Shown here piece after piece: positions 37,527-64,000 of a stretch of 64,000 nucleotides of DNA. The notes under the pieces were generated by a model. The model worked only from the letters and a program-made list of their open reading frames with translations. It ran no database searches and was not told the origin of the DNA. The DNA comes from Marsupella aquatica (Eukaryota > Plantae > Marchantiophyta), in NCBI GenBank assembly GCA_973895155.1, contig OZ316895.1, positions 13,565,186 to 13,629,185 of the forward strand. The letters are read 5' to 3'. The position numbers and the translations under genes are program-made. Within the stretch, counting starts at the first letter, position 1. Each line of letters opens with the position of its first letter.

Positions 37527-39856
37527 TCAAGGCTGTGGACTTGGAGGACTTTCATTCACAAGGCGAGGCCGTCGCGTGTTTGGATCAATCTGGACACTAA
37601 GGCCCATTTTTTTAAGTTCTGGGAGATTGACAGACTCTGTCACCTCCAACTGTGAAATTTCCTGTTGATTGCGTTCGTTTCCCTCCAGCAAGTTCCTCAT
37701 AGCCCAGAGACCCCACTCTCTCAAAAAGGGATTGTCGTTATCGACCACGCACTGTTGAAGGACCAAAAGAAGGCTGCCCTTCTCTCGGATTTGATCTTGA
37801 ACAGGAGAATTCTGGTAAGAGATGTTGGCAATCACAGCCACAATGTCCCGTCGATAACCAAGGTAAGGATTCTTGCGAGGGAATTTCCCCAAGTGATGAG
37901 GAAATCTATCTTCCACCGGCATCCCACCTGTATCACCTTTGCCAGGAACTCCTGGTGGGCCAAGAGCCTCGAGCAAGTTTAGGAGAAGGTCAACAAAGCC
38001 GTGTGAGAGAAGACGTGTTGCTATCTGCATACGATCTCCATGGGTACTATCCCAGGCAAGTAACATCCTCCATATTGATAGGACAAAGCCCAATATCTGA
38101 GCAGTGCAAGATGCGGAGGTTATAACAGGCACAGGACTAAGCTCGGCAGCTTTAAGTTCGCCCTGGGCTGCCATTCGTAGTATATCGATCATAAAGCACA
38201 TGGAGTTCCAAGGCATTGGCAGTCCTCCGGCATTTTTCTCGCTTTCGTCAGCAGAGGCAGTAGACAAGGGGTAGGTTGACACTCGACTATTCAGACAATC
38301 ACATAGAGTGTATAGGAGGCTGGCCTGCAGTGAGGTTAGCGTTGAGCTCTCGAGGCACAGTCGACATAGACCCAGAAGATCATCTGTATTCACTTTGTCA
38401 TAAGCTAACTCTCGCTTTAATGGTGGAACTCCTAGGTTTACCAACAAGAGAGGGAACAACGGCTCCTGCAGACATAGGTGCTGCACCAGGAGTTCAGACC
38501 AGTCGATCTGCCCAGAGCTTGAAGAAGCATTGCCAGGTGCATCGTCTGAAACCCAAAACATCCAAACCCTGCCAGAATAAGGTCACAATTATTTAATGAC
38601 ACTGACAGCCAAAGATAGGAGCTGGTTACATCCCGTAGACCATGGATCTTTTAAGAAATACACAAGAACGCACGTGGCAATCCCCATTTCGTGCCTCCTG
38701 ATTTCCTTACATTGTTATATTGCAGCGTAGGTTCTTTACAATTCAGGCCCTTGAGTCTTCTTTTCGAGCCATTGTGGCACATTCTCTTCATCTGTCTAAC
38801 CAATGCTATAGACATATTCATCCTCGATATAGTGAGTGACGTGCTTTCTGTCTGGGTGAGCAGTTTTCCCTGAATTGAACTTCAAGATTTGTGCTAAAGC
38901 TAGCAAGAATCATCCGCAAAACCCCGTTGTTTTGCAACCCCTAATTGAACAGTGTCATTTAAGAGAAGTTAAAGGCTTATACATGAATTGGTCCAGACAA
39001 ATGCAAATTTTGAGTTAGAAATAGTACCTAGATTACTGTCCATCGATGCCACAATCAGCAGGGCCACGAGAGCAGCACCATTGCCCTGACACAACTCCCA
39101 GCAACGCCTGGAATTGCTGTGGCAGCATGTGTAAAGTACCATACAAAGGGGCCCGTAGATCTCCTCCACACGCAGGGCCGCCAGTTCCAAAAGCACTGAG
39201 GGGAAGAAATTCTCCCACACAGCAGCCTGACAGGCCTCTCCACGGCCTGAAAAATTCCCTAGAAGCTGTACCATCATCTTTAGACATCCTACTGCAGACC
39301 CAGAAGCACGCCCTTGTTCTGTGCGAGAAATTAAAGCACTAGACCCAAATCGTGCAATAATCCGTTCAAGCGTTGAATCCTTCTCCGATACGACATTAGA
39401 CTGACCACCAAAATCTCGCGATGTATCAAGAGCCTGAGCTTGTCTTAGTAGTGTAGTTGCTACGGTGGCCAGAATTTCAGCTCCGCCACTGTCCAACAAA
39501 GCATCCTGGTTGGTGGAATCTCCAGCACTCAGGTTCCTGATGAGCTTTAGGAGAAGGAGAAGTTGATCGAGGAGCTCATCGTCGGACGAGGGAGAGGACA
39601 AATCGGAAGCTTCGGGGGTCGAGATGGAGGAGTCATTCACTCCATGAGAGACTTTGAGAAATCGCTGCAGCAAAACCACAAGCGAGACCACGATTCTCAG
39701 CTCCGCAAGCTTCGCTCGCCCTTCCGTGGACCGCGAAACATTGATCAGCTCCACGAGGGCCTTTTTCTCCAGAAACCCAAAACCCTCAGACTCTACCGGT
39801 ACCTTGAGACGCTCCACCAACTCGTGTAAACTTGAATCGTAGCCCGCCACTTCCAT
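37527..39856 (-). CDS. ATXN10: Ataxin-10 / MEE50-like ARM-repeat protein, 2 exons, about 615 aa
   Basis: Exon 39028-39856 (or from the ATG at 39892) joins 37527-38545 through a phase-1 GT..tttcAG intron (1848 nt from 39856). LKLIRNLSAGDSTNQD at the N-terminus; C-terminal ataxin-10 motif PYLGYRRDIVAVIAN..QDQIRE..LQQCVVDNDNPFLREWGLWAMRNLLEGNERNQ. Confidence 0.9.
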
Positions 39857-39882
39857 ATTTCCAGCAACACGAGCAATACCTC

Positions 39883-40266
39883 CTGCCAACATCCTGCTAT
39901 GCTCGACAATTCACACACAGCACTCATTAGCATCGGCCACCCTGCTATAAACTAGTAGCAGCTACACTCTACTCACCAATCCAAAGCTTCCTAGTTGCTG
40001 ATGATGGCTGCCAACATCCTGCTACGCTCGACAATTCACACACAGCACTCATTAGCATCGGCCACCCTGCTATAAACTACTGTAGTAGCAGCTACACTCT
40101 ACTCACCAATCCAAAGCTTCCTAGTTGCTGATGATGGCTGCCCACATCCTGCTGCGCTCGATAATTCGCACACAACACTCATTATTAGCATCGGCCACCC
40201 TGGTGTAAACTAGTAGCAGCTGCACTCTACCCACCAATCCAAAGCTTCATAGTTGTGGATGATGGC
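39883..40266. repeat. About 125-130 bp tandem repeat, 3 copies, abutting the ataxin-10 start
   Basis: ctgccaacatcctgcta.gctcgacaattcacacacagcactcattagcatcggccaccctg...gatgatggct at 39883, 40008 and 40138. Confidence 0.92.
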
Positions 40267-40862
40267 TTTTAGCGTTTCCACACTGTCATGTAAAAGTTTT
40301 TTTGTTTTTGTTTTTTTCACTGGTAGACCCCCTTATGGAAAAGTTTGTTTAATCAACCCCCTCAATACTTTTCCCCAATCTGGACCATTGATGGACCTTT
40401 GGGTCTCAGATCTGGACCATTGATAGACCTCAGGGGGTCGATCAAATAACAAGTTTCATTTTGGGGGTCGATCAAGCAAATACCTCCTCTCGAGTGGCTT
40501 CTGATCATAGGGTTTTTCACAGTGTTATGTAAAAGCAGTTTTGTTTTTATATCACTGGCCTCCTCTCCAGTGGCTTATGGTCATAGTGTTTTTCACAGTG
40601 TAAGTACAAGCTTTTTTGTTTTTTATCACTAGCCTCTACAGTTGCTTATGGTCAGTGTTATGTAAAATCTTTTTTGTGTTTAATCACTAGCCTCTACAGT
40701 TGCTTATGGTAACCTCTCTCTGTGTATTGTTTACTGAAACGAGCACATACATTGAGTGCCCCTCTCTATACTGAGTTGAGTACATACTTTGAGTGCCATC
40801 TCTCTCAGGGATTTGTTTCCTGAATTGATCACATAAAGAACCTGGCCTGTCACATCACAGAG

Positions 40863-40914: not shown

Positions 40915-42552
40915 TCAACGAAGTTACATGCCTATTAGATGTATAACGAAGGTCACAATGGCTTGACAAAGTTATTGGACTACTACATGTGTCAAGAAGA
41001 TGGTTGCACTACTCAGTCTGCAGATCAAGACCATGTTTCAGACATACCTAGTCGCATGTCATTTTCCAAATATTCTTGAAAAACCTAGAGTTAGCTGGCA
41101 TTGAGTTGAAGAGAGTGGTGCAGCATGGAAGAAGAATCTTTCTCGAGGATTGACTTGTTCCTCACATCATTACATGTGTCAACGAATGCTTCTACAATGT
41201 GTTAATTGCAGCTCACCCCCCTTTGGAGCCAAATTGGCTAATTAGAGAGTGACACGGGGTGGATTCACACCTGGAAAAAGAGGAAGTTTTCACCACACAT
41301 TAGTGTCTTCTCTATCTTTTAATTGTATAATGAATCCAAGACCACTCAAGAAGCACCATAAAAATATTTATACAACCATGTAAACACTTAGCAGGTAAGG
41401 ATGCCAAAGCGGATACCCTCATGCATTACCAATTTGAATGTACTAAACCCAAGCAGCCCATGACTATCCAGAAACTAAACTTGGTCGCAGGATTTTCGGC
41501 ATTTTGGAACAATATATACAGTGAAGTTGAACAAATTAATACTAGAACCGCCTCTTCATTTGAAATCCTTTAGGGGGATCATCGCTCAAGGTTCCTAAAT
41601 TTTGATTGGACAAGATCTGGAAGTTAGAAGTCACAATTTGAACCCCGGACCTCTCTGTTCCCAGCTAGTAGTTTTGACAAGCAGGGTTAATGGTAACTCA
41701 AGGCACAACTAAAAGGATGTGGACACAGACCTTTTTTGTCCTCCCTTGTGAACCTTCATACGGGGCTTATTTGGGTCCCAGCTAATGAGTTCATTTGTGC
41801 AAAGGCAAATAAAGGACAATGTAATTGTTGTGACGAACTGGGCACCATCATATAGAGACACCAGATCCTTATGTACTCCCGTATGTAATGGGCAAAGAAA
41901 TGGAATTTGGTGTGGATAAGGCCTTGTCACATCATTCTAGGTAGTGTTAGAGTGTATTGTACTATCTAGATCCGTATGTTTAGTATGTGTGCTATATGAG
42001 CCGATAAGGTTCCATCAGGTTTGTGTGAGAGGGTGCTTCTCACTTGTGAGGCATTGAAAGGTCATCTTTCAATGTTGAGCCTTGGAGAGAGAGGAGCTTG
42101 AGTGGCTATGGTGGTTGTGAGTTCTGCTTGTGTAACGTGGATTCCTTGAGTAGTGCAAGGTGCGTTGGCTTGACATACGTGTGTGATCGGATCGGTGCGG
42201 GATCGATGGGGTATTGTTGACCGGGATCGTTGTGCCGATTGTATGGAGATTACATTGAAAGATCAGGCATCGGACTCTGCTGTTGTTGGACAGAGTTTTG
42301 ATTTTCAGTTTGATTGTGTTTGACAACGGTTCGTGGTATCTCGGATCGTGCATCGTATTGCTTGATTGGATCGCCGATCGAGTGCGGTGCAGGAGTGGGA
42401 GAGGCAACTCGTGGTTACTCGGGACGAGGGGCGTGAGGGCGGAGCAGGAGCGGGCGGGCCAGCAAGCAAGCAAGCCAGCTTGCTGGGACGTGAGGAGTAG
42501 TTTGCAAGCTGCTGATTTTGGAGCGGCCAATTTGGTGCATAACTACAAGTGA

Positions 42553-42853
42553 GAGGACTCAATGACCAGTTCTCCTCGTCATCAGGTGGTTGCACCTTTG
42601 TTGTGGGATATGGACGAGATGTATGGGGCTACAAAGGGCCCACGACGATACTCTGGTGTAATTGGCACAATTGATCTGGATGACTTCATCCAGAAGTTTG
42701 ATACATGGTGCGATATGCAGACATTGCGTAACGCCACGTTGTTTACCCCTTTCATGGCATGGAAGGGATTATTTCAGCATTTGGAGGGGCCACCCATGGA
42801 TGACTACCATGAGTTTCGGAAGGCTCATTTGGTTGAGATTGAGGCATGGAGGC
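42553..42853 (+). pseudogene. 5' gag fragment of the DNMT-Gypsy family
   Basis: Near-identical to about 50037-50338 (MDEMYGATKGPRRYSG..DDFIQ.FDTWC..AWKGLFQHLEG). Confidence 0.9.
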
Positions 42854-43167
42854 TGTCGTGCGCATACACATCGCTACACAACATACATCGCTTGTCACAT
42901 ACATCCAAACATAGTCACACTGCCACATCACAAACACAAGAGAATGGAATACAAGTGGAACTCATGTCCACACATGTCCAAAACCCACAATCGCCCCCAT
43001 AGTTGGGAGTAAGGTCCCCTAACTCTAGCTAGCCATGAGTTCTACAAGGTTGATATACACCTTTTTAGGTGTGAAGATTAGGAGGCCGGGTGCAAGTGAG
43101 CCCCATCGATCACCTACCTGCAATCCATATCTGCCAAGAGAACACAAATGATAACTAGTCGGCTTCA

Positions 43168-43320
43168 CCGACACTAAGGACACAACCATGATCTACTAGG
43201 AATCACCTGCAATGGTGGTGTCAAACATGACATGTGCCATTCTCTAGAACACTTATCACAAATCAACATAGTAGCTGCTCCCTGAGTAGATCCACACAAC
43301 ATACATTTCAAGCCAGCACA
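43168..43320 (-). pseudogene. PHD finger at the integrase C-terminus
   Basis: C4HC3 pattern CMLC..LICDKCSREWHMSCLTPPL..IP...WLCP*C; a TAG at 43174-43176 precedes the last Cys, then R-stop. Confidence 0.88.
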
Positions 43321-43644
43321 AACATGTGCCAAGCTTGGATCTACTGTACCATCAATGTTGGGAATGTGACACGGTGCACAATTGCGCACATGATCCTCCC
43401 AAACCATACCATCGCGTCCCTCCAACATCAGGACACCAGAAGGCAACACTTCACGCACACGTAAGATTGTCCGGCCTGCGGTCACATCAAGTGTTGTGGG
43501 TGCTGTCTGCTGCAAATAAACATAATCACCAGGATGAAATCGTCGAATGCTTGCACGGTAACCTCCTCCACAAATAGTGGCATACCTCAAAGTATCACGA
43601 TGTTGGGCAATGGCAAGGTTATCAAAAGCCATGGGCATCACTCT

Positions 43645-44706
43645 CTAAAATACCCATGCTCTCTCTGAACACACCTTGACCCAAACATCAGGATCATCCA
43701 AGTTCACAACTGGTGCAACATCACGACGAATAGCTGCTGGCAAATCTGGCTCTCTACCATAGAGCAAACAGTAAGGTGAGAAGGATGCAAGTGATGCTTG
43801 CCGACTGAAACGGTAGCCCATAGCTAACCAAGGTAGCTGGAGATCCCAATCTCCCAGATGATCAACCTGCAAGCCATACTTACGCAATCCTCTCTTCACA
43901 GTTTGCACAACTCTCTCAGCTAATCTATCTGCCTCAAGATGATCACGAGAGGTAGTACGATGATCAATCAAAGCTTGTTCACACAAACTCTCAAACTCTC
44001 CACGGAACTCAATTCCCTTATCAGTCAACACCTCAACTGGTGCTCCAAAATGACTGAGTACGCGATCCAAAAATGTAGCAGCAACTCCTCCACTAGCTTT
44101 ATCTGGCAACACCACTAGCTCAATCCACTTGGAGAAGCGCTCCACCATGACCAAAACATACCAATTATGGCGTTGGATAAGAGGTAATGGACCAGCAAAA
44201 TCCAAACTCCAACGATATCCCAAACCCATGATCGGTAACGGGTGCAACTGGGGAGTGGGAGCATTAAATGATGCTCTCACTCTATCGCATACCACACACT
44301 TAGCTATCAACTGCTGGACATGAGTGTGCATACCACGCCACCAATATTGTGTCTGCAGCAAGCTATAAGTGCGCTTCACACCAAAGTGACCCAACTCCTC
44401 ATGTGCATGTCGCACCAAATATACTCGTTGTGATGGTTTTGGTACCACCAACACCCTACCATCATGCAGTACTCTCAAAAGATGGTTTCCCTCCCATCGA
44501 AACCTCTTGGCTCTTTGTAGAACCCTGTCACGTTCTTTGGCATCAACACTGCCAACAATAGAACCACTGTGCAGATATTCCAACACTCTCACATCATTGT
44601 GAATATCTTGTTGTCCAAAAGTTACCTCACCAACATCCACATCTGAAGACTCATCATCCACTCCATCCAATGAGGTAGAGTCCACAGATCCACTGTATGC
44701 TGGCAC
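43645..44706 (-). pseudogene. Gypsy integrase (copy A)
   Basis: HAHEELGHFG..YWWRGM..CVVC, WSLDFAGP, LTDKG.EF, AERVVQTVK, SPYCLLYGREP. Confidence 0.92.
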
Positions 44707-45659
44707 CCAACAAAGAAAGGCAGATGCATGTCATCCTAGCACCATCTCCTTATCTGACTCATCATGCCATCTGGCTCCAGTCTCATCCTGCTGACTGGTA
44801 CATGGATTGCGGCTTAATCCATCTGCATCTAAGTTCACTTTTCCAGGCCTATGCACCACCTGGAAATTATACTCCTGTAACAACAATGCCCATCGTGCAA
44901 GCTTCCCTGTAAGCTTGTCAGACTCCATTAACCACTTAAGAGGCTGATGATTAGTGATCAAGGTGAAGGGGTTACCAAACAAGTAGCAACGAAAGTGTGC
45001 AACAGCCCACACTGCTGCCAAACACTCTCCCTCATAAGAGCTATACTTAGCCTCTACTGAATTGTTTGATCTACTGGCATAAGCCACAACAAACTCATTC
45101 CCCTCATCATCCTTCTGAGTCAGCACTGCTCCAAGTCCTACTCCACTCCAATCAGTGTGTAGCTGAAATGGTTTGCCTGAACGGTATCTCCATGAGCTCT
45201 CTCCATGTCACTGTAACGGTATATATGGCCTACGAAAGATTGGCGCATAACTAGCCAATTCAATCTGAATACCAGGACCCTTTAATGTCCCCAAATCTTT
45301 CATGCTAAATGCAAAACAATTTCAGTAACTCTTCAGGAATCGATGCATGCGACGTTTCTCCTTCCCTGTCAACTTAGGGCCAAGCTGTGGTTCCCAACTC
45401 TCCACCAAATCCCTAATATCTCTTTGTAGGGTAGAAGAGATAGCCAATGATTGCTATTTAGCAGTAGATTGAGCAGTCCCTTCCTGCTCAACAATCTATC
45501 CAGCCTTGGCCAATCCTGCCATAGGTCCATGGACTGTCTGCTCGCCCCCAGCTGTGGTCAATACTGTCTTAGTGGACCGCAAGCTCACCAAGGGACAATC
45601 AGTAATTCCAGTAGAGCGCATCCGCAACTGTTCAGCTACTCCCAAGCTGATAATCCAAG

Positions 45660-46591
45660 TCAAACAATTCAGGTCCATTGCTTGACCAAGAACCTGGCGC
45701 CGCAAACCCTCTGACAGAGAGGCAACTGCAGTGGTGCCAGTCAAAAATCCCATAGCACGCTCTCTCTCATCAGCAGTAGGTTCCACTAACTGCTGGAGAG
45801 CTGTGTCCCACACAAGTCCAGGGCCACCTACTCTGAATGCATATGAAGTAGAGTGGCTTACAAGAGTGGGTAATGCACAACGTGGGCACCCAACTACATT
45901 GACCATTGCCAATGGAGGTCTATCAGGTTGGGTCACATCCTGTGCACGACGTCCTGAATCCAAAATATCATCCACCACTAAGGCTGGTGAGCGTGGAATG
46001 TTGTCAAATGCGCACTTCAGCACCTCACATGGGATCAAATTAGTCCACCACAAGTGTGGAAGATGTGCACGAGAACCCGCACGTGCAACATCCAATAACA
46101 TAGCAGGTCCAATCCAAGACCTTACCTGGTGAACACTGGCAACAATCCGACTACGATCATCATCTAACAATAGCACATTCTCCAAAATGTATGTTGGAGA
46201 CTGTGTCTGATGTAGCTGGAGATGACGCAGCACCCGTAACATCTCCCAAAACAATGCAGAGCGTGGATCATGAAGTCCATGCCCAACGCCAGCTCTAGAT
46301 TGGCCCTAACATGGCCAACCAGCAATCACCAAATCAATGGGGCCAACACGATGCAGATGATCTGCCCCCAGCAATGAAATATCAGCAGATAGTGCATGCT
46401 GATAACCATGAACAGCATCCACTGGCAGCAACTATGGATATCTATCCACCAACATAGCCACATGTCGCAAATGAGACCCTTTGTGCTGTCTCATCTGACT
46501 CCACATACAAATAACGACGCACAATAATTCCTGCCTGAAGAATAGCAGCCAATCCAGTGCTAATCCCACCAAAAAGATCCAACAAACAAAT
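45660..46591 (-). pseudogene. DNMT3-like C5 cytosine methyltransferase domain (copy A)
   Basis: LLDLFGGISTG (I), YVESD (II), DLVIAGWPC*G (IV; CAG>TAG at 46306-46308), YILENV (VI), SRAHLPHLWWTN (VIII), ERERAMGF (IX), RRQVLGQAMD (X). Confidence 0.9.
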
Positions 46592-48799
46592 ACCCTCTGG
46601 TGGATACTGCCAAGCAATAGGAGTGGTATCCAATGGTGAAAGAGTCACAGGTCCATCTGCAAGAGGCTGTTCTGCTCCTGACTGTGGTGTAAAAGCATGA
46701 CGCCATGCATCATGTACCAATCGTGCTGCTGTCTATGGCAAGGCCTATGTAGTGCCCCACACTGGTGGCACAACACTGCCAACAGGTAATCCTCGCATGA
46801 TGTGCTCCTTATGAGACTCCTCCAATGGTGGAACATATGCTGCATGCGCATTACCCTCAATCAAATCATCAGGTCCAACAATTAGACCATTGAATGCTGC
46901 CAAAGACAATGGTGTGGATTTAGGGCCTCCCATAGGTCCACTAAATCTCACTGGCAATTTTCTCAATCAAGCATCTCCTGACTGCCAATCAGGTCTATAT
47001 GACACTGATTCCTCCCAAAAATCAAGAATAAATCCCATGGGTAGAGCACTGTACATCCCACCAACACATCATATGACTCTGCCTTAGTCAGAATAGCTCG
47101 CGCCTATATCTGTGAGCTATCTATGATATGACCTTCCTGAATCCTCAAATCAAGAGGTCTCCTGGTAATGTGTTGTGTAGGTGTAGGTCCCCCCAATGAA
47201 GTCTGAATGGGAAAGGGACAATCCTCCAAATCCTCTGGACGCAATCCCAATCCACGTATGGCAGACTTTCCCAACATCAAGGGCTGAGCACCAGTATCCA
47301 GTAACACCCTCTCTGGCTGGTATACTGCTCCAGAAGGCCCAACTAATCGGAAGATACCACTCCGATTATCCAATGACAACACTAGGTTTAAACCTAGTCC
47401 TCTCAAATGCAGGGCATGCTGGTAAATCCACCAACCTCGCTGCTGCTGCATGCCATGTCTCACTAGTAGTAGTAGGTGGCATGGTCTTCACTACATCAAC
47501 ACTACAAGTTGCTTCTGCATGGGAAGCAACCACTGGAGTGTCCTCACATAGTGTAGCTGCCAATCTGAACACTTCTGCAGGACCAACTTCCAAGTTCAGC
47601 ATGTCTGTTGCTGAAAATAATGGGGCGCGTACCATGGCAATAGCCGCCCCCAGCAAGGTACTTGTCATCCCTGCTGCATCACTACCTGATTCTGCCAACT
47701 TACCCACGTTAGGGTTTGTCCGAACCGGGTTCATAGAGGCAGTCTGAACTGTCTCTGACAATGTAAAAGACTGAGGAAGCTTTGTCTGCCGACGTGCATT
47801 CCCCCTCTATGGATCTAACTCCACTACTGCTCCTCGGGGCTCAAGAGCTTTGGCTGCCCCACGTGTCAAAGCTGCTGATGCATCAATATGTGCAGTGCCA
47901 CACATGAATCCCATGGTGGCAAGGTCTCCATCAGCTCCATAAGATGTGGAAGGACCATGGGATGTGGAAGGTCCATAGGATGTTGATGCCCCATCACCAG
48001 AAGTAGGTCTCACCTGGGAACTAGCCATGGCAGCTAGCTATTGCTCCAATTGAGCAATCTTAGCATCCTTTGGATCTATGGTTACAGCAGGGACAGCATC
48101 ACCTCCATGTCTCCCTGCATGTGGCATGCCATGACCACGTCCACCACCTCTACCTCCTCCTCCTCTTCCCTGATCATGTGTACGGGATCCTCCCCTTCAT
48201 AACTCAGGGTGGAATGAGAAACACCTATCCTTGGTGTGTCCAGGAGCTCCATAGTGATCACACTATCGCTGATCAGGCAATGATGCTCCCCCTGATCCTC
48301 TATGATCTGGGCAATATCTCTGTGCATGATCCCCACCACAGGTCCAACATCCTGACCGCTGTCTAGCATAAGAGGGCACAGGTCTCTGACTGGTAGACTC
48401 TCGTGCAGTAGGCTTCTCCCTCTGGCTCTTTCATGCAATAGGTTGTGGTGTGGATGTAGATGCAGCCTTTGGTGCTTCCTTGGCAAATCCGAAAGTCACC
48501 ACCTTCTCATTCACCATATTGAGCTCAATGCGCTCAGAAAGGGTAAAAACAACTGCTAATGTGGGATCTGCATCCCTAAGCAGAGTGACATCTCTCACTC
48601 TACGTCACAATTCTCTGTCCAAAATTGCATACCAAAACTGGACTGCCTGAGCCTCTGTCACTCCCTTAGTGACAGTGATCAATTTGCGCATACGAGTGTA
48701 TGCCTCACGTAGACTTTCTCTAGTCTTGCGCTGGAACTCCTGGTGACCCTTCAACTTATTAGTTCTCACACCCTGATAGTCACAATCACACCGGTAGGA

Positions 48800-51700
48800 T
48801 CGTTGGTTCTATTTAAGTACTTTGTTGCTATTTGATCTGGTTCTGGCCAAGCTTGAACGTTGTTGGATTTGGATCTGGTCTAGATCTGGATCTGGATCTG
48901 GAAAGAGATGGCCGAAGGTTGCTGCTTGTATCGCACTGCTATTCTGTGGACAGATCTGTTAGAATTTTGAGTGCTTGCAGCATTTTATTGTCAAGGGACG
49001 CTCGCGAAATGTCCCAAAACCATGCACGATAGGTTTGCAGAGGTCGAGAGCCATCGACGTTGCCGTTGTTGTGAAGGAAATTGCTGCTTTCGAGTGGCAA
49101 ATATTGCCATTTCTGAGCCCGACGATTTCTGTTTTGTATACACACACAACTGTGCGCGCATAAGGCGACATGTGAGGTCACCCATCCCGAAAGTGCTCCC
49201 AACCGAGAGCGCAAAGTCACCCATTGCGAGCGCAAGCAGGCGCGAGGTCGAGGTTACCCATCCCAGGGCTATTCCGGGTCGTGAGCGCGAGGGGAGGCAC
49301 AAGGTCGAGCGCGAGGAGGTCACCCATCCCGGGGTTATTCCCAGCCGCAAGCGCTTAAACTGGCAAGTTCTCATCCCACCTTGTGTACACACAATTTTTC
49401 ACAATTTGTTGTTTAGATTCAAGCGCCAAGGGGCTTTATACACTTTCCGATTTGCTTAGAGCCTTGTTTCAGGCCAAATCAGAGGCTCTTTAGAAGTTTT
49501 TGATAGTTCTGAGTTCATCTAAATACACAGATTGAACCAATTGTGCATGGTTTCTCATCTATAACATTGGGACATCATGAAGCCTATTATGAAGGCCTTT
49601 CATTGAACATTATGAATATTTGTTTGATCAATGTGTGATCACTCTTGGTGTGAAGAGTTAGTGTTTGATTATTCTTGTTGATTGGATCCTCTCCACACTT
49701 ATTTCCTGTTTATGCACCATGTTGGTTCGGTGTGGGCGCTTGATTCCATAGGAGTGATCCGGGTTTGCAACTGGATATTCTAGTGTGCTATGTATTTCTT
49801 TCCTGGTGATGTTGGAGTGATGCCCAACACACCAAGGTGAGTGCTTGTGGTGCTGACAGGGATAGATTGTCCTTAGGGTTAGCACATAGATTAGGTTAGG
49901 GTTGGTCACCACGGATTCTTCTGGTGCTACTGGATTACCCGATGGACGACGGACTGGTTTCACTCGGAGTGGGGCACAGTTTCGGCCAGCGGCATTGGTA
50001 GCAGTCAGTAGTGCAGCTTCAAATAGTGATTCTGATGAGGACTCAGTGACCAGTTCTCCTCATCATCAGGTGGTTGCACCTTTGTTGTGGGATATGGACG
50101 AGATGTACGGGGCTACAAAGGGCCCACGACGATACTCTGGTGCAATTGGCACAATTGATCTGGATGACTTCATCCAGGAGTTTGATACGTGGTGCGATAT
50201 GCAGACATTGCGTAACGCCACATTGTTTACCCCTTTCATGGCATGGAAGGGATTATTTCAGCATTTGGAGGGGCCACCCATGGATGACTACCATGAGTTT
50301 TGGAAGGCTCATTTGGTTAAGATTGAGGCATGGAGGCAGCATTGGTCGCCTAATTACGTGTCCATCACCTATGGCACTAGTGCGGTTGCCCAACCCATTG
50401 CCACATCTGCTGCTTCTTCTAGCAGCACTAGCCAGAGTGGCACACCATCCACCAGCAGCATCCACCGCTACTCCTACCGGTGTGATTGTGACAGGAACTG
50501 GAGTTGCGCCAACATTTAACCCTGTGGTGGAATTCTTTGAGGTACTGAAGCAGAACTATCAGGGTGTAAGAACTGATAAGTTGAAGGGTCTTCAGGAGTT
50601 CCAGCACAAGACTGGAGAGAGTCTACGTGAGGCATACACTCGTATGTGCAGATTGATCATTGTCACCAAGGGAGTGACAGAGGCTCAGGCAGTCCAGTTT
50701 TGGTATGCAATTTTGGACAGAGAATTGCGACGTAGAGTGAGAGATGTCACTCTGCTTAGGGATGCAGATCCCACATTAGCAGTTGTTTTTACCCTTTCTG
50801 AGCGCATTGAGCTCAATATGGTGAATGAGAAGGTGGTGACTTTCGGATTTGCCAAGGAAGCACCAAAGGCTGCATCCACATCCACACCACAACCTTTTGC
50901 ACGGAAGAGCCAGAGGGAGAAGCCTACTGCACGAGATTCTATCAGCTAGAGACCTGTGCCCTCTTATGCTGGACAGCAGTCAGGATGTTGGACCTGTGGT
51001 GGGGATCATGCACAGAGATATTGCCTAGATCATAGAGGATCAGGGGGAGCATCATTGCCTGATCAGCGACAGTGTGATCACTGTGGAGCTCTTGGACACA
51101 CCAAGGATAGGTGTTTCTCATTCCATCCTGAGTTACGGAGAGGAGGATCCCGTACACATGATCAAGGAAGAGGAGGAGGAGGTAGAGGCGGTGGACGTGG
51201 TCGTGGCATGCCACATGCAGGGAGACATGGAGGTGACATTGCCCCTGCTGTAACCATAGATCCAAAGGATGCTAAGATTGCTCAATTGGAGCAACAGCTA
51301 GCTGCCATGGCTAGTTCCCAGATGAGACCTACTTCTGGTGATGGGGCATCAACATCCTATGGACCTTCCACATCCCATGATCCTTCCACATCTTATGGAG
51401 CTGATGGAGACCTTGCCACCATGGGATTCATGTGTGGCACTGCACATATTGATGCATCAGCAGCTTTGACACTTGGGGCAGCCAAAGCTCTTGAGCCCCG
51501 AGGAGCAGTAGTGGAGTTAGATCCATAGAGGGGGGATGCACGTCGGCAGACAAAGCTTCCTCAGTCTTTTACATTGTCAGAGACAGTTCAGACTGCCTCT
51601 ATGAACCCGGTTCGAACAAACCCTAACATGGGTAAGTTGGCAGAATCAGGTAGTGATGCAGCAGGGATGACAAGTACCTTGCTGGGGGCGGCTATTGCCA

Positions 51701-53641
51701 TGGTACGCGCCCCATTATTTTCAGCGACAGACATGCTGAACTTGGGAGTTGGTCCTGCATAAGTGTTCAGATTGGCAGCTACACTATGTGAGGACACTCC
51801 AGTGGTTGCTTCCCATGCAGAAGCAACTTGTAGTGTTGATGTAGTGAAGACCATGCCACCTACTACTACTAGTGAGACATGGCATGCAGCAGCAGCGAGG
51901 TTGGTGGATTTACCAGCACGCCCTGCATTTAAGAGAACTAGGTTTAAACCTAGTGTTGTGTCATTGGATAATCGGAGTGGTATCTTCCGATTAGTTGGGC
52001 CTTCTGGAGTAGTATACCAGCCAGAGAGGGTGTTACTGGATACTGGTGCTCAGCCCTTGATGTTGGGAAAGTCTGCCATACGTGGATTGGGATTGCGTCC
52101 AGAGGATTTGGAGGATTGTCCCTTTCCCATTCAGACTTCATTGGGGGGACCTACACCTACACAACACATTACCAGGAGACCTCTTGATTTGAGGATTCAG
52201 GAAGGTCATACCATAGATAGCTCACAGATACAGGCGCAAGCTATTCTGACTAAGGCAGAGTCATATGATGTGTTGGTGGGATGTACAGTGCTCTACCCCA
52301 TGGGATTTATTCTTGATTTTTGGGAGGAATCAGTGTCATATAGACCTGATTGGCAGTCAGGAGATGCTTGATTGAGAAAATTAATTGCCAGTGAGATTTA
52401 GTGGACCTATGGGAGGCCTAAATCTACACCATTGTCTTTGGCAGCATTCAGTGGTCTAATTGCTGGACCTGATGATTTGATTGAGGGTAATGCGCATGCA
52501 ACAGATGTTCCACCATTGGAGGAGTCTCATAAGGAGCACATCATGCGAGGATTACCTGTTGGTAGTGTTGTGCCACTAGTGTGGGGCACTGCACAGGCCT
52601 TGCCACAGACAACAGCATGATTGGTACATGATGCATGGCGTCATGCTTTTACACCACAGTCAGGAGCAGAACAGCCTCTTGCAGATGGACCTGTGACTCT
52701 TTCACCATTGGATACCACTCCTATTGCTTGGCAGTATCCACTAGAGGGTATTTGTTTGTTGGATCTTTTTGGTGGGATTAGCACTGGATTGGCTACTGTT
52801 CTTCAGGCAGGAATTATTGTGCGTCGTTATTTGTATGTGGAGTCAGATGAGACAGCACGGAGGGTCTCATTGTGACATGTGGCTATGTTGGTGGATAGAT
52901 ATCCATAGTTGCTGCCAGTGGATGTTGTTTGTGGTTATCAGCATGCACTACCTACTGATATTTCATTGCTGGGGGCAGATCATCTACATTGTGTTGGCCC
53001 CATTAATTTGGTGATTACTGGTTGGCCATGTCAGGGCCAATCTAGAGCTGGCGTTGGGCATGGACTTCATGATCCACGCTCTGCATTGTTTTGGGAGATG
53101 TTACGGGTGCTGCGTCATCTCCAGCTACATCAGACACAATCTCCAGCATACATTTTGGAGAATGTGCCATTGTTAGGTGATGATCATAGTCAGCTTGTTG
53201 CCAGTGTTCACCAGATGAGGTCTTGGATTGGACCTGCTGTGTTATTGGATGCTGCACGTGTGGGTTCTCGTGCACATCGTCCACGCTTGTGGTGGACCAA
53301 TTTGATCCCATGTGAGGTGTTGAAGTGCGCATTTAACAACATTCCACGCTCACCAGCCTTAGTGGTGGATGATATTTTGGATCCAGGGCGTCGTGCACAG
53401 GGTATGACCCAACCTGATAGACCTCCATTGGCAATGGTCAATGCAATTGGGCGCCCACGTTGTGCATTACCCACTCTTGTAAGCCACTCTACTTCATATG
53501 CATTCAGAGTAGGTGGCCCTGGACTTGTGTGGGACACAGCTCTCCAGCAGTTAGTGGAACCTACTGCTGATGAGAGAGAGCGTGCTATGGGATTTTTGAC
53601 TGGCACCACTGCAGTTGCCTCTCTGTCAGAGGGTTTGCGGC
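48800..53641 (+). mobile_element. Ty3/Gypsy copy B: LTR/leader-gag-PR-DNMT, cut by another Gypsy insertion
   Basis: Non-coding leader with a candidate LTR end tgctgaca at 49858; gag from about 49.9 kb with knuckles CWTCGGDHAQRYC and CDHCGALGHTKDRC; protease LLDTGAQ (about 52035); MTase 52750-53641. Similarity to copy A ends abruptly at 53641. Confidence 0.9.
52750..53641 (+). pseudogene. DNMT3-like C5 cytosine methyltransferase domain (copy B)
   Basis: LLDLFGGISTG, YVESD, ITGWPCQGQS (catalytic PCQ at 53026-53034), GLHDPRSALFWEM, YILENV, AHRPRLWWTN, ERERAMGF. In-frame stops near 52873 and 52906. Confidence 0.92.
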
Positions 53642-54562: not shown

Positions 54563-57500
54563 TCACGACACCGGTGGTGGATCCTTAATGGACGCCCCCA
54601 ACGCTTCCTCCTCAGCCACTACCGTAGGCTCATTCCCTGACAGATTACCTGCCCTTGACTGAGTCAACTCTCCATCGGCCTGACTGGGTCCACCATCGGC
54701 GTCAGCATCGGCTCGAGAATCGGTTACGGCCTCAGCCTCGGCTACGGTCTCCCCGGCCTGCTCAAGAGGCGGATCTGGAATACTGGCCTCCTTACTGAGT
54801 AGTTCGGCTTGGGCCGCACCATCCCTACCTGTGATCATAGCGGGATCTATTGCCGTATTCATGTCGGAGGATGGTGCTGGTTCTACCTCTTTGGTCACCA
54901 CGGCTTGTGGAGTCGGATTACTCCTTGACCCTGAAGGTTTCCGCTTTTTCTTCTTTTCTGGTTCGGCAGCTGGTCCCTTCCCCTTCCCACTTACCTCCGG
55001 CACTGGTGCAGTTGGCGCGGCTTTTTCTTCGGCCAGTACCACTCCTGGTAACTTGGTTGCCCCAATTGGAGTTGGGCCTGATGAAGACAAGCACCTAAAT
55101 ATTGCGGCTTGTTTCTTCAGCCGCTCCGTTTGGTTGTCGGCCCGCCGCTGGAGGTTCTCCATCTTCCTCGTGATTTCCTCCAACTCCTCTTGGGTCTCAT
55201 CCAGGTCCTTGCGTGCCTCCTCTAGTTCCTTCTGGGCTTCCTCCCGTTCTTGTTTCAAGGTAGTCCTCTCCTCCTGGGTTGCTTTTAGCTCCTTGTCGAG
55301 CTCTGCAATGATGACAGACTCCATCTGGTTCATCTTGGCGTAAGTCTGTTCGAGCATCTCGTCCTTCTCCCTTAGGTCGGCCTTGAAGCTGGCCGTCAGG
55401 GACGCAAGCTCCTGCTGCAGCGCCATAATCCCTTGATAGGATTTCCCTAACTCGGCCTCCTTCTGCTCAAGGGCTCCGCGGATTTTCTCGAGCTCCCCTT
55501 TCAACGCCCATTCCTTTCTTTGGGTCTCCGCCATGGCCCGGCTGTTGGCTGTTATGTGGGCCTCCTCTGTATTCTTCAGCTCTTGCTTCCACTTCTCCCT
55601 CTCTTTGATCGTGTCGGCCAACTCTTCCTGCGTCTGAGTCAGTTTATCCTTGATATTCTGATTATCAGCCTGCGCGGTGTCCAACTGCCCCTGCATGATG
55701 TTCAGCTCATGTCGTTTAATCCGCAGTTCATCTTGGGCTTTCTTGGCCGCCCTTAGATCTTCAATCTCGGCTTCCATCCTCCTAAGCCGCCGAATGACCT
55801 CGTCCTTCTTGCTTCTCTCTAAAGCCACCGCTTCTTCTAATTGGTGCTTCTCCAACTGCTCCCTATGGAAAAAGGGTCCTACTTCCAACTCCTCTCCAAA
55901 GATGCCGAGCGCAAGTTCCCCACACATCTCACCATACTCCATGGCTCTATTCTTAGCGTAGGTGGAGTAAGTAGAAGTGATCGGCATCGCCCATCGCGGC
56001 CTCTGCTCCCAAGCCGTCCTGCGGATCTCTTCAATCGTGGCTAGAGGTTTGCTTCCTTTTTTGGCTAGCCGCCTGATGTCCTCCGGCCAATCTCCTCCTG
56101 GTAAATCCTTTTCCTTAGCCAGGGCGGCCTCCTCCTCCTGCTTGATTCGCTCCTGAAATTCCTGCACCATCTGTTTTATGCCGTCGAAGCTCGGGGGAGC
56201 AACATCTGGTGGGGGAGACTCAGGGCTACTCTGCTGGTTGGGGTCCCCTCGCACTACCCTTGGAAGTGTGGGGACAAACCGGCCACAGGTCCTTACTCCT
56301 GGAACGTGATGGTCCGACCCATAGCCGGAATTATCATGGCTGCAGTCCTCCACTGCCTCCTCTACCTCTTGGACGTCCGGCTTCTCCCTCTCCTCTTCGT
56401 CGGTAGGAGCTTCAGGCAATTCTGCCTCAGATTCGGAGCTTGAGGTTCCCACGTACATTCGAACACCTGGCTTGGATTCCGGCCTGATTCTCTCCTTGTC
56501 TCCAGCAAAGGGGTTTTCTCTTGTGAGTCGGTATAGGCCTACCTCTGTAGTAGTGTCCTGCATTGTTGCCGTTGCCGTTGTTGTTGCCGATGCCGATTTC
56601 TTTTCTTTCTCCAGTAGTTTCAGCAGACTCTGCATGCCTGGTTGCTGCATCGGCAAGTCTTCCTTCCTGGGCCTAAACACCTGCTCGATCGTAGGACTAA
56701 CAGGTGGTTGAGGCTTCTCAGCCAATGGCCTCGGCGTTGGAGCTTCCTCGGGTGCCCTTACCTGCAGGGGAAGTACCGGGGCAAAAGTCTGACCTCTGGC
56801 ATACCGGCACAACAGCGGCATGTGATAGCCCAGCCACGACACGCTCCCCATGCCGATTACCTGCTGCTCCTCCTTTAAGATCTTCTTCAATTGGTTGAGG
56901 AGGTACCCGTTGTAGTCCCAGCTTGGGTCTGGCCTTTCTGCCAGATAGACCTGTGCCTTGCCGATCTCTGCCCTCGGCAAGTTACAATGCATGGTCACCC
57001 GCAAGAAGTCGATCATCTCTCCTATGTGCGGGTTGGTGCAGGTGTTCCGGAAGAAGCCATTCTTCGTTGATGGCCCGGGGAACGACCGGAACTCCTTGTC
57101 AGGCAAGGTCTTCCTGGTATCAACTTTGGTCTTATTGCCTATCGGCAGGCCAAACACTTCGGCAATTACCTTGGGAGTAAGATAGAAATCCTTCCCATAT
57201 ATCCTCGTGCAATTGGTCTCGGGTTCCCATGACCCCACGAATTCTAATAGGTCTGACTCCGGTACCTCCGGCTTCAGCCATGGTAATCTTACAAAGGCCT
57301 CCAAGCCGGATCCGACCATGAAGCCTTGGTATCTCTTGGTCTGCATGGCCGTAAAGCATGCATCCTCCTCCCGTGCAAAATGTAGTTGCACCTCCACCGG
57401 TAGGGTTGCCGCCCAGCCTTTCCAGGTGTCATCCCTGGTTGGAATGGCCTTGATGGGATCGACCTCCTCCTCTTTGGCTTCTCCCTGCCTCCTGCTCTGC

Positions 57501-58195
57501 TGCTCGGCTGGCTTCTTTGGTGCCGCCGACCTCGTTCTTTTTGCCGGGGTGGCTTCATCGTTGACGGCTCCCTTCCTCTTCATCTCTGCTGCCGTGGAGG
57601 TTTCTCCTAGCACCGTTGCCTGGGTCCACCTTTCCGTGCTACCCTTTAATTCCCAGTGTATGTCGTTGTAGTTCTTGATGGCCTCTCGGATGCCGACGAC
57701 ACTGTCTTTGCAAAACAGAAGATCGTCGAGTTGATTGGAAGTAGGCGTCCACAGGAACTCGTCCTTGATGAGTTCGCCTCCTAAGAAAGCCGTCTTCTGC
57801 AGCTCCCACAATCGAGCGAGCTCCTGCCGTTCTCGAGCTGCCCTTTCTGATTCCTCGTCCTCGTAAGTCTTGATGTACTCAGTTGCCCGTTCGAACAGGC
57901 ATCCCCAGAAATGTGCCGCTTGATTGACGTTGCTCATACCCTCCTTAGGTCGATCGTCGGTATCTACTCTCTTCCCGAGTGCTTGCCTAAGCAGCTGACA
58001 GTAGTTGGCCTCCCGTAGTCGTCTGCCTAGTTCGTGCTCGCAAATGAGCCACCATCTCCTGCAAGCGCTCCTTACCCCTCCCCTCTGCCGGTCCTTCTTC
58101 CCGTTGATCCTTCCTAGCCGCCGACACTTAACGCGCCCTAACCCTAATCGGGTTTTCACCCTCAGCCTTACCTCCGGCCTCTGCCCGGGTTCCAT
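54563..58195 (-). CDS. Extra retroelement ORF3 (1210 aa): basic N-terminus, transposon-protein-like domain, long coiled coil
   Basis: Uninterrupted 3.6-kb ORF starting about 100 nt after the integrase stop. LLEFVGSW..RIYGKDFYLTPKVIAEVFGLP resembles Athila/Tat extra-ORF domains; E/K/Q/L heptads over about 55130-55860; KKKKRK near the C-terminus. Confidence 0.8.
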   Translation of the reverse strand: MEPGQRPEVRLRVKTRLGLGRVKCRRLGRINGKKDRQRGGVRSACRRWWLICEHELGRRLREANYCQLLRQALGKRVDTDDRPKEGMSNVNQAAHFWGCLFERATEYIKTYEDEESERAARERQELARLWELQKTAFLGGELIKDEFLWTPTSNQLDDLLFCKDSVVGIREAIKNYNDIHWELKGSTERWTQATVLGETSTAAEMKRKGAVNDEATPAKRTRSAAPKKPAEQQSRRQGEAKEEEVDPIKAIPTRDDTWKGWAATLPVEVQLHFAREEDACFTAMQTKRYQGFMVGSGLEAFVRLPWLKPEVPESDLLEFVGSWEPETNCTRIYGKDFYLTPKVIAEVFGLPIGNKTKVDTRKTLPDKEFRSFPGPSTKNGFFRNTCTNPHIGEMIDFLRVTMHCNLPRAEIGKAQVYLAERPDPSWDYNGYLLNQLKKILKEEQQVIGMGSVSWLGYHMPLLCRYARGQTFAPVLPLQVRAPEEAPTPRPLAEKPQPPVSPTIEQVFRPRKEDLPMQQPGMQSLLKLLEKEKKSASATTTATATMQDTTTEVGLYRLTRENPFAGDKERIRPESKPGVRMYVGTSSSESEAELPEAPTDEEEREKPDVQEVEEAVEDCSHDNSGYGSDHHVPGVRTCGRFVPTLPRVVRGDPNQQSSPESPPPDVAPPSFDGIKQMVQEFQERIKQEEEAALAKEKDLPGGDWPEDIRRLAKKGSKPLATIEEIRRTAWEQRPRWAMPITSTYSTYAKNRAMEYGEMCGELALGIFGEELEVGPFFHREQLEKHQLEEAVALERSKKDEVIRRLRRMEAEIEDLRAAKKAQDELRIKRHELNIMQGQLDTAQADNQNIKDKLTQTQEELADTIKEREKWKQELKNTEEAHITANSRAMAETQRKEWALKGELEKIRGALEQKEAELGKSYQGIMALQQELASLTASFKADLREKDEMLEQTYAKMNQMESVIIAELDKELKATQEERTTLKQEREEAQKELEEARKDLDETQEELEEITRKMENLQRRADNQTERLKKQAAIFRCLSSSGPTPIGATKLPGVVLAEEKAAPTAPVPEVSGKGKGPAAEPEKKKKRKPSGSRSNPTPQAVVTKEVEPAPSSDMNTAIDPAMITGRDGAAQAELLSKEASIPDPPLEQAGETVAEAEAVTDSRADADADGGPSQADGELTQSRAGNLSGNEPTVVAEEEALGASIKDPPPVS

Positions 58196-58298
58196 GGTTG
58201 CCCCTAATTGTTTATATTTTCCTTGTTTTGTCCCTATACTAAGGTGTTCCTAGGGTGCCTTCCTGCTTTACCCACTTAACCAGCCGAGTGATTCCTGT

Positions 58299-59748
58299 CT
58301 AGGCATCACATAGCTCCCCACTTAATTGTGAAGCGTCCTCGCGAACAACTTCATCTTCGTCCATATAGTATTTCTTGAGGCGGTCATAATGGATGCGAAC
58401 TGGATATACCTCTCCCGTAATGTTGGCCAATTGTACGGAGCCATTGGGGAACATCATGGTTACTCTAAAGGGTCCTAACCAGCGAGTGTAAAGCTTTCCT
58501 GGAAACCTACTATACCTACTGTCATAAAGTAGCACAAGATCACCGGTATGAATACTAACTACTTTTAACCTTTTATCATACTGCTGCTTCATGATATTCT
58601 GTCTATATTCTACTCTCTCGGCTGAAATCATTCTCGCTTCCTCTAAAGCTTCTAACCTATATTCTCGCTCCTTTAGGCTCTCCTCCGCTGAGGCTCTTTC
58701 CTCAATTGTAACTTGAAATGTCGGTATCTCAAGTTGCATGGGTACCAGGGCTTCTTGTCCAAAGGTTAAGAAGAAGGGTGTATGACCGGTAGTGGATTTA
58801 TAGGCAAGATTGTAAGCAAAAACAGCAGCAAACAATTTATCATCCCAATCGAGTTTGTTCTGAGCTACTGTCTTGTTCAATATCTTTCCTATAATTCCGT
58901 TTGCTCGTTCTGTCAACCCGTTTGCCTTTGGATGGTAGGGAGTAGTAGGCCTATGTTTAACTAAATACTGCTCATTTAAACGACTAATTATATCATTCAA
59001 AAAATGGGTTCCTCTATCACTAACTAATTCTAGGGGTGCTCCATACCTGGTGAAGATCTGCTCATACATGAATCTAGCCGTAGTAATTGCATCATCCTTC
59101 GTTGTTGGTCTGGCCTCTACCCATTTAGTTGCATAATCCGTAGCCAGGATTATGTACTTGTTCCGTCGAGGGTGGGTCAGTGGTTTCAGAGGTCCAATGT
59201 AATCAATACCCCACTTCTCGAATGGTGCCAGAGGTAGAATAGGGTGCAGTGGATGCCTGGTGGACGCCCTTGGTCCTCCCGCTCATTGACAAGGATCGCA
59301 TTGTTTGATAAACTGATAGACATCTTTGTGCAAGGTGGGCCACTAGTAACCGGCATTTAATATCTTCTTAGACGTGGTTATTGGGGCAAAATGTCCTCCG
59401 GCCTCCTCTCCATGCATGGCCCGTAGGACTCGTTTTACCTCTCTCTTTTCCAAACATCTTTGAATCGTGCCGTTGATTCCATGCTTGTGCAGTATGCCTT
59501 TAATGCACTGATACTGTCTGACCTTCCGCACAAAGACTGCGGCTTGCTCTCGGCTTAATCCTGGTTGTAATCTGGAAGTGCTGAGAAATTGTAAAATCTC
59601 AGGGTACCATGTACCAGCTATTTCCACAACGAATAGCTCCTCGTCGGGGAATCGATCATCGATGCAATCCGTGGCAGGTTTACCTGTGATCCTTGAAAAG
59701 AAGTCGGCATTGGCATGTAACTTTCCCGGCTTGATCCTCAGCTCATAG
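58299..59748 (-). pseudogene. Gypsy integrase with in-frame stops
   Basis: HGEEAGGHF..KILNAGY*WPT, PFEKWGIDYIGP, DYATKWVEA, SDRGTHF, YHPKANGLTER, WLGPF. Confidence 0.92.
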
Positions 59749-63815: not shown

Positions 63816-64000
63816 CTTCTATGGCAAAGCATTCACCAACCATTGAAGTTGCATACCTTCAGATGCATTGGTCTTTGTACGTCTTACCAGTTTCTGAAAG
63901 CGTTGCAAGAACTTCCTGAAGGATTTGTTCTCCTTGAACCAAAGTTGTCCCAACTTCAGCACTGCTAGTTCTGAAGTTCCAATGGGTCGAAACTCCTTAA

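Follow-up and report, generated by a model that had tools for sequence, protein, structure and literature searches.

The window analyzed here is a 64,000-nucleotide stretch of the liverwort Marsupella aquatica (contig OZ316895.1, positions 13,565,186 to 13,629,185). It contains the remains of a Ty3/gypsy retrotransposon that belongs with the Gypsy-DNMT3 elements of streptophytes, and a PHD finger follows its integrase. On the minus strand, the element reads from 5' to 3' gag, aspartic protease (PR), C5 DNA methyltransferase (DNMT), the start of reverse transcriptase (RT), RNase H (RH), integrase (IN), an SH3-like barrel and the PHD finger (Table 1). The Ty3/gypsy order PR-RT-RH-IN is therefore present. 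The RT core is deleted in the window copy and is present in the relatives P0013, L001 and L002; the missing part corresponds to residues 79-363 of relative P0006 in tblastn. The DNMT lies inside the gag-pol coding region at 45628-46650, where FGG, PCQ and ENV motifs are found, and again in a second copy in the window. The pol part of the first copy contains several in-frame stops. Because of these stops and the loss of the RT core, this copy is dead.

The PHD finger forms the C-terminal end of a 156-residue minus-strand frame (43177-43644), which finishes in ...CMLCGSTQGAATMLICDKCSREWHMSCLTPPLQVIPSRSWLCP. The ligand motifs CMLC...CDKC...WHMSC...WLCP are visible at this end. PF00628 matches residues 114-156 of the frame with an E value of 7.6e-10 and 39.1 bits, above its curated gathering cut-off of 24, and the C4HC3 finger reported in a first-pass annotation of the window is real. 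Seven of the eight zinc ligands precede a TAG at 43174-43176. The TAG is followed by Cys-Arg and the natural TGA at 43165-43167, and this Cys is the eighth ligand. The annotation had assigned the finger to 43168..43641. The finger itself is located at 43171-43305; the remaining 43306-43641 is the integrase C-terminal region, which includes the SH3-like barrel. The module shares the frame of the integrase (43648-44730), with a single TAG at 43645-43647 between them. The position of the barrel was obtained by mapping strands 48-98 of an AlphaFold model of relative P0122 (predicted local distance difference test, pLDDT, ~90) onto the window via A1, an alignment of 20 barrel-plus-PHD sequences.

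As the annotation proposed, the finger occupies the position of the chromodomain in chromoviruses, behind the integrase core and the SH3-like barrel. In both kinds of element a histone-reader module is placed at the integrase C-terminus, and the same reader-guided integration is presumed. Chromoviruses carry a chromodomain, whereas the window element carries a PHD zinc finger, and a Pfam scan of its frames found no match to PF00385 (chromodomain). The likely mark would be the unmodified H3 tail, as opposed to H3K9 methylation for chromoviruses.

The barrel and the finger recur together in a large family. A read-through of the window IN-PHD region with X at the stops (P0001) was used as a search query, and 120 long relatives were listed. 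PF00628 occurs alongside integrase domains in 113 of them (count read from the table), and the strict zinc-ligand pattern in 107. An exhaustive HMMER search with the 156-residue frame returned 3196 cluster representatives at E<=1e-3; 749 of them remain at E<=1e-10 and 180 at E<=1e-30. Of the 150 HMMER matches listed, nearly all span the query end to end, indicating that the barrel and the finger are one conserved module. The C4HC3 ligand pattern with canonical spacing is complete in 232 of 262 relatives.

Intact relatives carry the finger in frame with the integrase. Metagenome loci were scanned with the single protein P0005. Two of them, L001 and L002, each encode RT, RNase H, integrase and PHD together in one open 1047-residue frame. 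The relative P0013 is a single 2358-residue frame with the order gag-PR-DNMT-RT-RH-IN-PHD. In nine intact relatives, PF00628 was found with E values of 2e-7 to 4e-13. The annotation had made its proposal depend on the finger being in frame with the integrase in intact copies, and this is what the three frames show.

Other copies of the same family also lack the stops that interrupt the window copy. Contigs from four public runs carrying window sequence were mapped on 43100-45300 at >=85% identity. Between 772 and 5951 contigs per run match this region, and the family is very high-copy in these runs. At the stop 43174-43176, 167948 of 169338 in X1 depth has another letter, giving a sense codon. 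The same is true of 152249 of 157161 at 43645-43647 and of 193125 of 202833 at 44731-44733, and 293141 of 293880 has another letter at 45496-45498. In all four runs nearly all contig depth reads a sense codon at the four stops checked, which are therefore private to the window copy. Within 43100-45300, most differences between the window copy and other copies are transitions; in X1 they account for 106 of 127 places listed by type of change. The excess of transitions would match deamination of methylated cytosines in decaying DNA. The private stops examined are likewise transition-type changes. Loose ends of other copies, seen in the run contigs, fall at 45172-45297.

The finger is under purifying selection. 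In three pairs drawn from three intact or nearly intact loci, the 45 PHD codons have ratios of nonsynonymous to synonymous substitution rates (dN/dS) of 0.04, 0.05 and 0.12, compared to 0.06-0.08 for the rest of the second open reading frame (ORF2), with dS saturated in two of the three pairs. Across 213 distinct fingers of the window length, positions that are neither ligands nor part of the search pattern keep the same residue in 176-212 sequences.

In the tree of the integrase-to-PHD region, the nearest neighbors of the window copy are P0002 and P0003, a Coleochaete scutata transcript with 72% identity. This transcript is the sole sign of expression in the wider family, and no RNA run with element sequence is listed among 23 runs. 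Air and biocrust metagenome runs contain parts of the element. Some family copies are filed as bacterial: the P0005 and P0335 clusters contain entries such as 'uncultured Synechococcales cyanobacterium' CAA9586175.1, and one DNMT piece is filed under 'Candidatus Obscuribacterales'. These are likely mis-binned plant or algal DNA.

The annotation also named co-occurrence of the PHD finger and the DNMT across related elements as a check. The P0001 and 156-residue searches were seeded with the PHD itself and are biased to finding it. A search seeded with the DNMT alone (244 residues of the second copy) is free of this bias. It listed 120 relatives, 50 of which reach a complete integrase core; 47 of these run at least 190 residues beyond it. 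The complete PHD pattern is found in 46 of the 47, P0404 being the exception, and the co-occurrence is borne out. Among RT-IN proteins with no DNMT match, only P0114 (Klebsormidium nitens) and P0068 have an N-terminus long enough to make the missing DNMT meaningful; the rest start shortly ahead of RT. In the lineage sampled, the two modules thus have almost the same distribution. PF00145 was found in relatives P0013 (E 8e-8) and P0350 (E 1.5e-11), and the best solved relatives of the DNMT are DNMT3A chains, a weak match with an E value of 1.1e-5.

The placement of the DNMT was determined by HMMER with probes cut from P0013, together with the PHD pattern. Two arrangements were found. In type A, the DNMT is located upstream of RT (the window element, K. 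nitens P0082, P0012 and P0013). In type B, a homologous DNMT is located between RNase H and the integrase, with E values of 1e-28 to 1e-73 to the P0013 probe. Type B members come from Pleodorina, Chlamydomonas eustigma, Cymbomonas and Haematococcus and include many metagenome proteins. An unrooted FastTree phylogeny of the integrase-to-PHD region (197 rows) separates 40 rows, with all type A and ORF2-only proteins, from 157 rows, 127 of which are type B (Shimodaira-Hasegawa-like support 92). Where a host is named for type A or its DNMT relatives, it is a streptophyte (Klebsormidium, Coleochaete, Closterium, Marchantia, Calypogeia, Sphagnum); for type B it is a chlorophyte. Among named DNMT relatives, those closest to the window element come from liverworts, Marchantia with 61-67% and Calypogeia with 65% identity. 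In both groups the PHD finger is located behind the integrase barrel, whatever the placement of the DNMT, which argues that the finger is functionally part of the integrase and not of the DNMT.

The two groups also end differently. Proteins of the window clade end a median of 7 residues past the PHD finger. Those of the chlorophyte sister clade (type B), which lie outside the window and include P0024, P0027, P0047, P0064 and P0168, extend a median of ~255 residues past it. A Tudor-like module follows the PHD finger in 100 of 128 sister-clade proteins, with PF21743 at an E value of 0.0011 in P0168. A further domain, found in 61 of the 128, carries FxGxG and SPPF motifs and is predicted to adopt an S-adenosylmethionine-methyltransferase fold. 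Foldseek matches this domain to METTL5, KsgA, M.EcoKI and PacII, among others, and the Dam hint from Pfam is weak (E 0.07-0.11).

The DNMT and the integrase are separated by a conserved stop in the window clade. In L001 and L002, ORF1 (gag-PR-DNMT; 1369 residues in L001) and ORF2 (RT-RH-IN-PHD) are in the same frame with one TAG between them. The TAG is located at 45454-45456 (minus strand) in the window, 5083-5085 in L001 and 4661-4663 in L002. Its context is TAG CAG TTA in L001 and TAG CAA TCA in L002 and the window. Of 38 loci with a placeable RT start, 18 carry a stop 42-50 codons ahead of RT with Gln as the next codon, reading TAG CAR YYA in five and TAG or TAA then CAA CCC in 13; a nearer stop intervenes in the other 20. 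No variant of 45454-45456 was found in the four runs, although the position is covered. UAG-CAR-YYA is the leaky-stop context of tobacco mosaic virus. The TAG at this junction looks like a programmed leaky stop, a prediction made from its sequence context. If it holds, the DNMT would be made with Gag and the protease, and the reader-integrase at a lower level. The annotation had placed the PHD finger and the DNMT in one polyprotein. In the window clade the conserved in-frame TAG splits the DNMT from the PHD finger, and a single polyprotein would therefore be formed only by the predicted readthrough.

Comparisons with solved structures were used to assign the type of finger. The A1 profile was searched against all solved chains. 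Its matches include CHD4 (7e-25), KMT2C/D, PHF12, PHD1 of the KDM5 proteins (Lid, 5A, 5B, 5D), DPF2/3 and ATXR5, as well as WSTF, BAZ2A/B, KAT6A/B, UHRF1/2, PHF21A (BHC80), ORC1b and AIRE. The ING, BPTF and TAF3 fingers are absent from the best 60 of 118 solved-chain matches. The AlphaFold model of intact P0122, which is 62% identical to the window frame, has a mean pLDDT of 77 and ~90 in both domains. It contains a five-stranded barrel followed by the finger, which is predicted to have a PHD fold. For the pair of domains, Foldseek found the Tudor-PHD cassettes of PHF1, MTF2 and UHRF1 at high root-mean-square deviation (rmsd). With the finger alone, it found the ATXR5 PHD with H3 (0.7 Å over 47 columns, 40% identity), the UHRF1 PHD (0.8 Å), DPF3 (0.7 Å), BHC80 (1.3 Å), BAZ2A (1.4 Å; entry title 'with unmodified H3K4') and ORC1b (5.3 Å; entry title 'with unmodified H3 peptide'). 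In profile and model, the finger appears closest to those solved with unmodified H3, namely ATXR5, BAZ2A, ORC1b, UHRF1, BHC80, KDM5 PHD1 and AIRE.

The PHD finger is well supported as a feature of the element, and a role in steering integration is plausible. On balance we favor the reading that the finger tethers the integration complex to H3K4-unmethylated nucleosomes, and would thereby steer insertion. After processing, the PHD finger would stay on the integrase, where it would bind H3 tails without K4 methylation. The bound finger would tether the intasome to such nucleosomes, and insertion would be biased away from active promoters. Chromodomains would do likewise for chromoviruses, using a different mark. 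In the window clade, the writer would accompany Gag, and production of the reader-integrase would require the predicted readthrough. Histone binding, a preference for H3K4me0 and an effect on insertion sites are predictions of this reading. Reader and writer may also cooperate.

Several points weigh against this reading. The window finger carries a stop and differs at two sites where 191 and 194 of 213 relatives have Gly, so this copy is not evidence of function. The PHD seeding of the P0001 and 156-residue searches favors the finger in their counts. Specificity of PHD fingers is not reliably readable from similarity. For the nearest solved relatives, a preference for H3K4me0 is given in the entry titles of some only.

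A wider reading joins the finger and the DNMT. It holds that an ancient Ty3/gypsy lineage, reaching chlorophytes, streptophyte algae and bryophytes, has co-inherited an H3K4me0-type PHD reader and a DNMT3-like writer since before the split, a pairing that would correspond, in a retroelement, to the ADD and methyltransferase domains of DNMT3. The reader would place copies in H3K4-unmethylated chromatin and the Gag-level writer would methylate them, and the chlorophyte branch would have added the Tudor-like and amino-methyltransferase-like domains. We consider this reading tentative.

The finger might instead serve the DNMT of the element, as the ADD domain does in DNMT3. It would place or activate the enzyme on H3K4-unmethylated chromatin, and new copies would become methylated. 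The ADD domain reads the unmodified H3 mark, and the PHD finger resembles readers of that mark. The co-inheritance of reader and writer in the DNMT-seeded relatives and the nearness of the DNMT to DNMT3A among solved structures fit this explanation as well. However, the PHD finger never adjoins the DNMT. It is always located behind the integrase barrel, and the DNMT is either upstream of RT across the conserved stop or between RNase H and the integrase. Protease processing would likely part the two. This explanation is unlikely.

We give the same low standing to a non-histone role, in which the finger would be a structural zinc module of the integrase or a binder of a host tether, nucleic acid or an import factor. 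The integrases of Ty1, Ty3 and Ty5 bind host proteins via C-terminal peptides. Some PHD fingers take non-histone ligands, and several UHRF1 PHD entries contain Stella or PAF15 peptides. However, the element finger is close to fingers solved with H3 tails (33-41% identity, rmsd 0.7-1.4 Å), and the Tudor-like module found after the PHD finger in most sister-clade proteins points to a chromatin-reading theme.

Reading of H3K4me2/me3, which would direct insertions to promoters or gene 5' ends, is still more doubtful. Many PHD fingers read H3K4me3, and in the element family the position immediately ahead of the His ligand is a conserved aromatic, being W in 134 of 213 fingers and Y in 59. However, no classical H3K4me3 reader is among the best 60 of 118 solved-structure matches, and in the structural comparison the finger is best matched by entries solved with unmodified H3.

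A chance match or a host exon captured outside the element, as might be suspected from the stops that cut the window finger from the integrase and interrupt the finger itself, has a negligible probability and was rejected, because the module recurs in 749 cluster representatives at E<=1e-10 and end to end in 180 at E<=1e-30, the Pfam match is strong (E 7.6e-10) and the stops are private.

The closest published system is KnitGypsy-Dnmt3 of Klebsormidium nitens, a Gypsy-DNMT3 element (de Mendoza et al., 2018; PMC5890265). Like the window element, it is described as belonging to Ty3/gypsy and encoding a DNMT3-like C5 methyltransferase within its coding region. K. nitens P0082 has the same order DNMT-RT-RH-IN and 54% identity over 71% of the IN-PHD read-through (E 4.6e-116). 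P0082 is a partial model that ends inside the integrase barrel, so that a PHD finger would be inferred there and is not seen. The nearest named relatives of the window DNMT are from liverworts and not from Klebsormidium. The PHD-bearing K. nitens protein P0107 was considered as kin of the DNMT-bearing P0082 and set aside; the two share only 35% identity, which is no proof that KnitGypsy-Dnmt3 has a PHD finger. The accessible parts of the text and three supplements of PMC5890265 make no mention of PHD. The Fig. 4 legend of that paper gives a DIRS-like terminal-repeat arrangement for Gypsy-DNMT3 elements. Compared to this, self-comparison of the window found no long terminal repeat (LTR) pair flanking the element, L001 and L002 have no terminal repeats, and an inverted gag fragment (42550-42853) is located at the 3' end of the window element.

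Both halves of the combination have been described. REM1 / Gypsy-7a_cRei of Chlamydomonas reinhardtii is a Gypsy LTR element whose polyprotein has a PHD finger (Fig. 6 legend, PMC9940879). Its domains as listed there include no DNMT, unlike the window element, a comparison made by description only. PHD is reported as a common accessory domain of C. reinhardtii transposons (PMC8557442), and PHD fingers in retrotransposons are discussed in PMC6673714, with citation of Kapitonov and Jurka (2003) and Perez-Alegre (2005). EpiLTRs are LTR retrotransposons that combine a reader and DNA methyltransferases in one unit and are termed 'epigenetic toolkits' (bioRxiv 10.64898/2026.05.21.726589); the preprint also names streptophyte Gypsy-DNMT3. 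EpiLTRs carry a chromodomain, a Dam-like adenine methyltransferase and a DNMT4-related DNMT, whereas the window element carries a PHD finger and a DNMT of the Gypsy-DNMT3 kind. The Pfam scan found neither a chromodomain nor an adenine methyltransferase in it. No mention of a PHD finger was found in the accessible part of the EpiLTR preprint. In the literature searched, KnitGypsy or Gypsy-DNMT3 appears only in PMC5890265 and this preprint, and no paper on liverwort elements of this kind was found.

The first-pass annotation had described the element as a self-contained epigenetic toolkit. The kind itself is not new, since Gypsy-DNMT3 elements, PHD-bearing retrotransposons and EpiLTRs are already in print. 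Not found in the literature searched are the near-constant PHD partner, the reader type, the split by a predicted leaky stop, the alternative placement of the DNMT and the extension of the lineage to bryophytes.

The element finger can also be compared to host proteins. PHD readers of unmodified H3 (ATXR5, KDM5A/B PHD1, BHC80/PHF21A, BAZ2A/B, AIRE, UHRF1 and CHD4) are its best profile and fold matches, at the identity and rmsd given above over 45-55 columns. These readers are domains of host chromatin proteins; in the element, the fusion is to a retroelement integrase and the ligand is a prediction. Animal DNMT3 resembles the element in that an H3K4me0-type reader, as judged by similarity in the element, and a DNMT3-like writer are encoded in one genetic unit. 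Unlike in animal DNMT3, reader and writer are not adjacent in the element and are likely separate mature proteins. The element finger is a plain PHD, not an ADD domain (GATA-like plus PHD).

Retrotransposons that carry a DNMT have been found in very few lineages, and the literature searched does not spell out their chromatin-reading side. In the DNMT-bearing Gypsy lineage described here, an integrase-fused PHD finger is almost always present. The lineage reaches land plants: among named proteins, those of liverworts and mosses are the closest DNMT relatives. If the finger reads unmodified H3K4, the lineage would be a natural case of reader-guided integration combined with self-encoded DNA methylation. 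This would bear on how transposons settle in host epigenomes and on the design of targeted integrases.

Table 1. Features of the Gypsy-DNMT3 element and its second copy in the window.
Feature	Position	Strand	Evidence
Gag region of copy 1 (no 5' end found)	47400..48781	minus	tblastn of P0350 residues 243 onward, self-BLAST
Aspartic protease	47038..47382	minus	PF13650 E 9e-4, tblastn
C5 DNA methyltransferase (DNMT3-like), frameshift near 46470-46494	45628..46650	minus	tblastn of P0350, P0013; weak PF00145 E 0.009
Private in-frame TAG, 14 codons upstream of the conserved TAG	45496..45498	minus	other letter in nearly all run depth
Conserved in-frame TAG (TAG CAA TCA), gag-PR-DNMT / RT-RH-IN-PHD junction, predicted leaky stop	45454..45456	minus	L001, L002, 18/38 loci
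RT-region start and deletion joint	45223..45402	minus	tblastn of P0006, P0013; translation
RNase H domain	44869..45177	minus	PF17917 E 4.3e-37
Integrase H2C2 zinc-binding domain	44272..44436	minus	PF17921 E 1.1e-16
Integrase catalytic core	43948..44217	minus	PF00665 E 2.2e-12
Private in-frame TAG, integrase core / C-terminal domain and PHD	43645..43647	minus	translations; sense codon in other copies
SH3-like beta-barrel of integrase C-terminal domain, directly ahead of PHD finger	43372..43524 (approx.)	minus	alignment A1 and AlphaFold model of P0122
PHD finger (C4HC3), private TAG 43174-43176 ahead of last Cys	43171..43305	minus	Pfam PF00628, translations
Copy 2 (gag-PR-DNMT only), head to head with copy 1, ends after DNMT	50033..53641	plus	self-BLAST, ORFs, tblastn
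Gag N-terminal fragment, adjoins copy 1 3' end in opposite orientation	42550..42853	plus	97% identical to 50033-50337

The two copies form an inverted duplication of 3.1 kb, in which 45699-48780 (minus strand) and 50555-53641 (plus strand) are 96% identical over gag-PR-DNMT. The gag N-terminal piece missing from the 5' end of copy 1 is found at its 3' end in inverted orientation. Such an arrangement might have arisen by inversion or by recombination between copies.

Several other features surround the element. An open frame of 1228 residues, rich in Glu, Lys and Ala and with no Pfam match at E<=0.001, is located at 54563-58249 (minus strand), between copy 2 and another Ty3/gypsy element. The latter (58299-63818, minus strand) has a CCHC gag, RT, RNase H and integrase in long open frames and contains neither PHD nor DNMT. 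A direct repeat pair at 2969-3288 and 9312-9636 (92% identity, 6.3 kb apart) is likely the LTR pair of a further element. A host gene with an ataxin-10 domain (PF09759 in relatives) and at least two exons is found at 37527-39910 (minus strand). The best named relative of its exon at 37530-38582 is from Riccia sorocarpa (41%), and Sphagnum proteins are ~40% identical. A tandem array with a period of ~128 bp (39883-40312) adjoins this gene.

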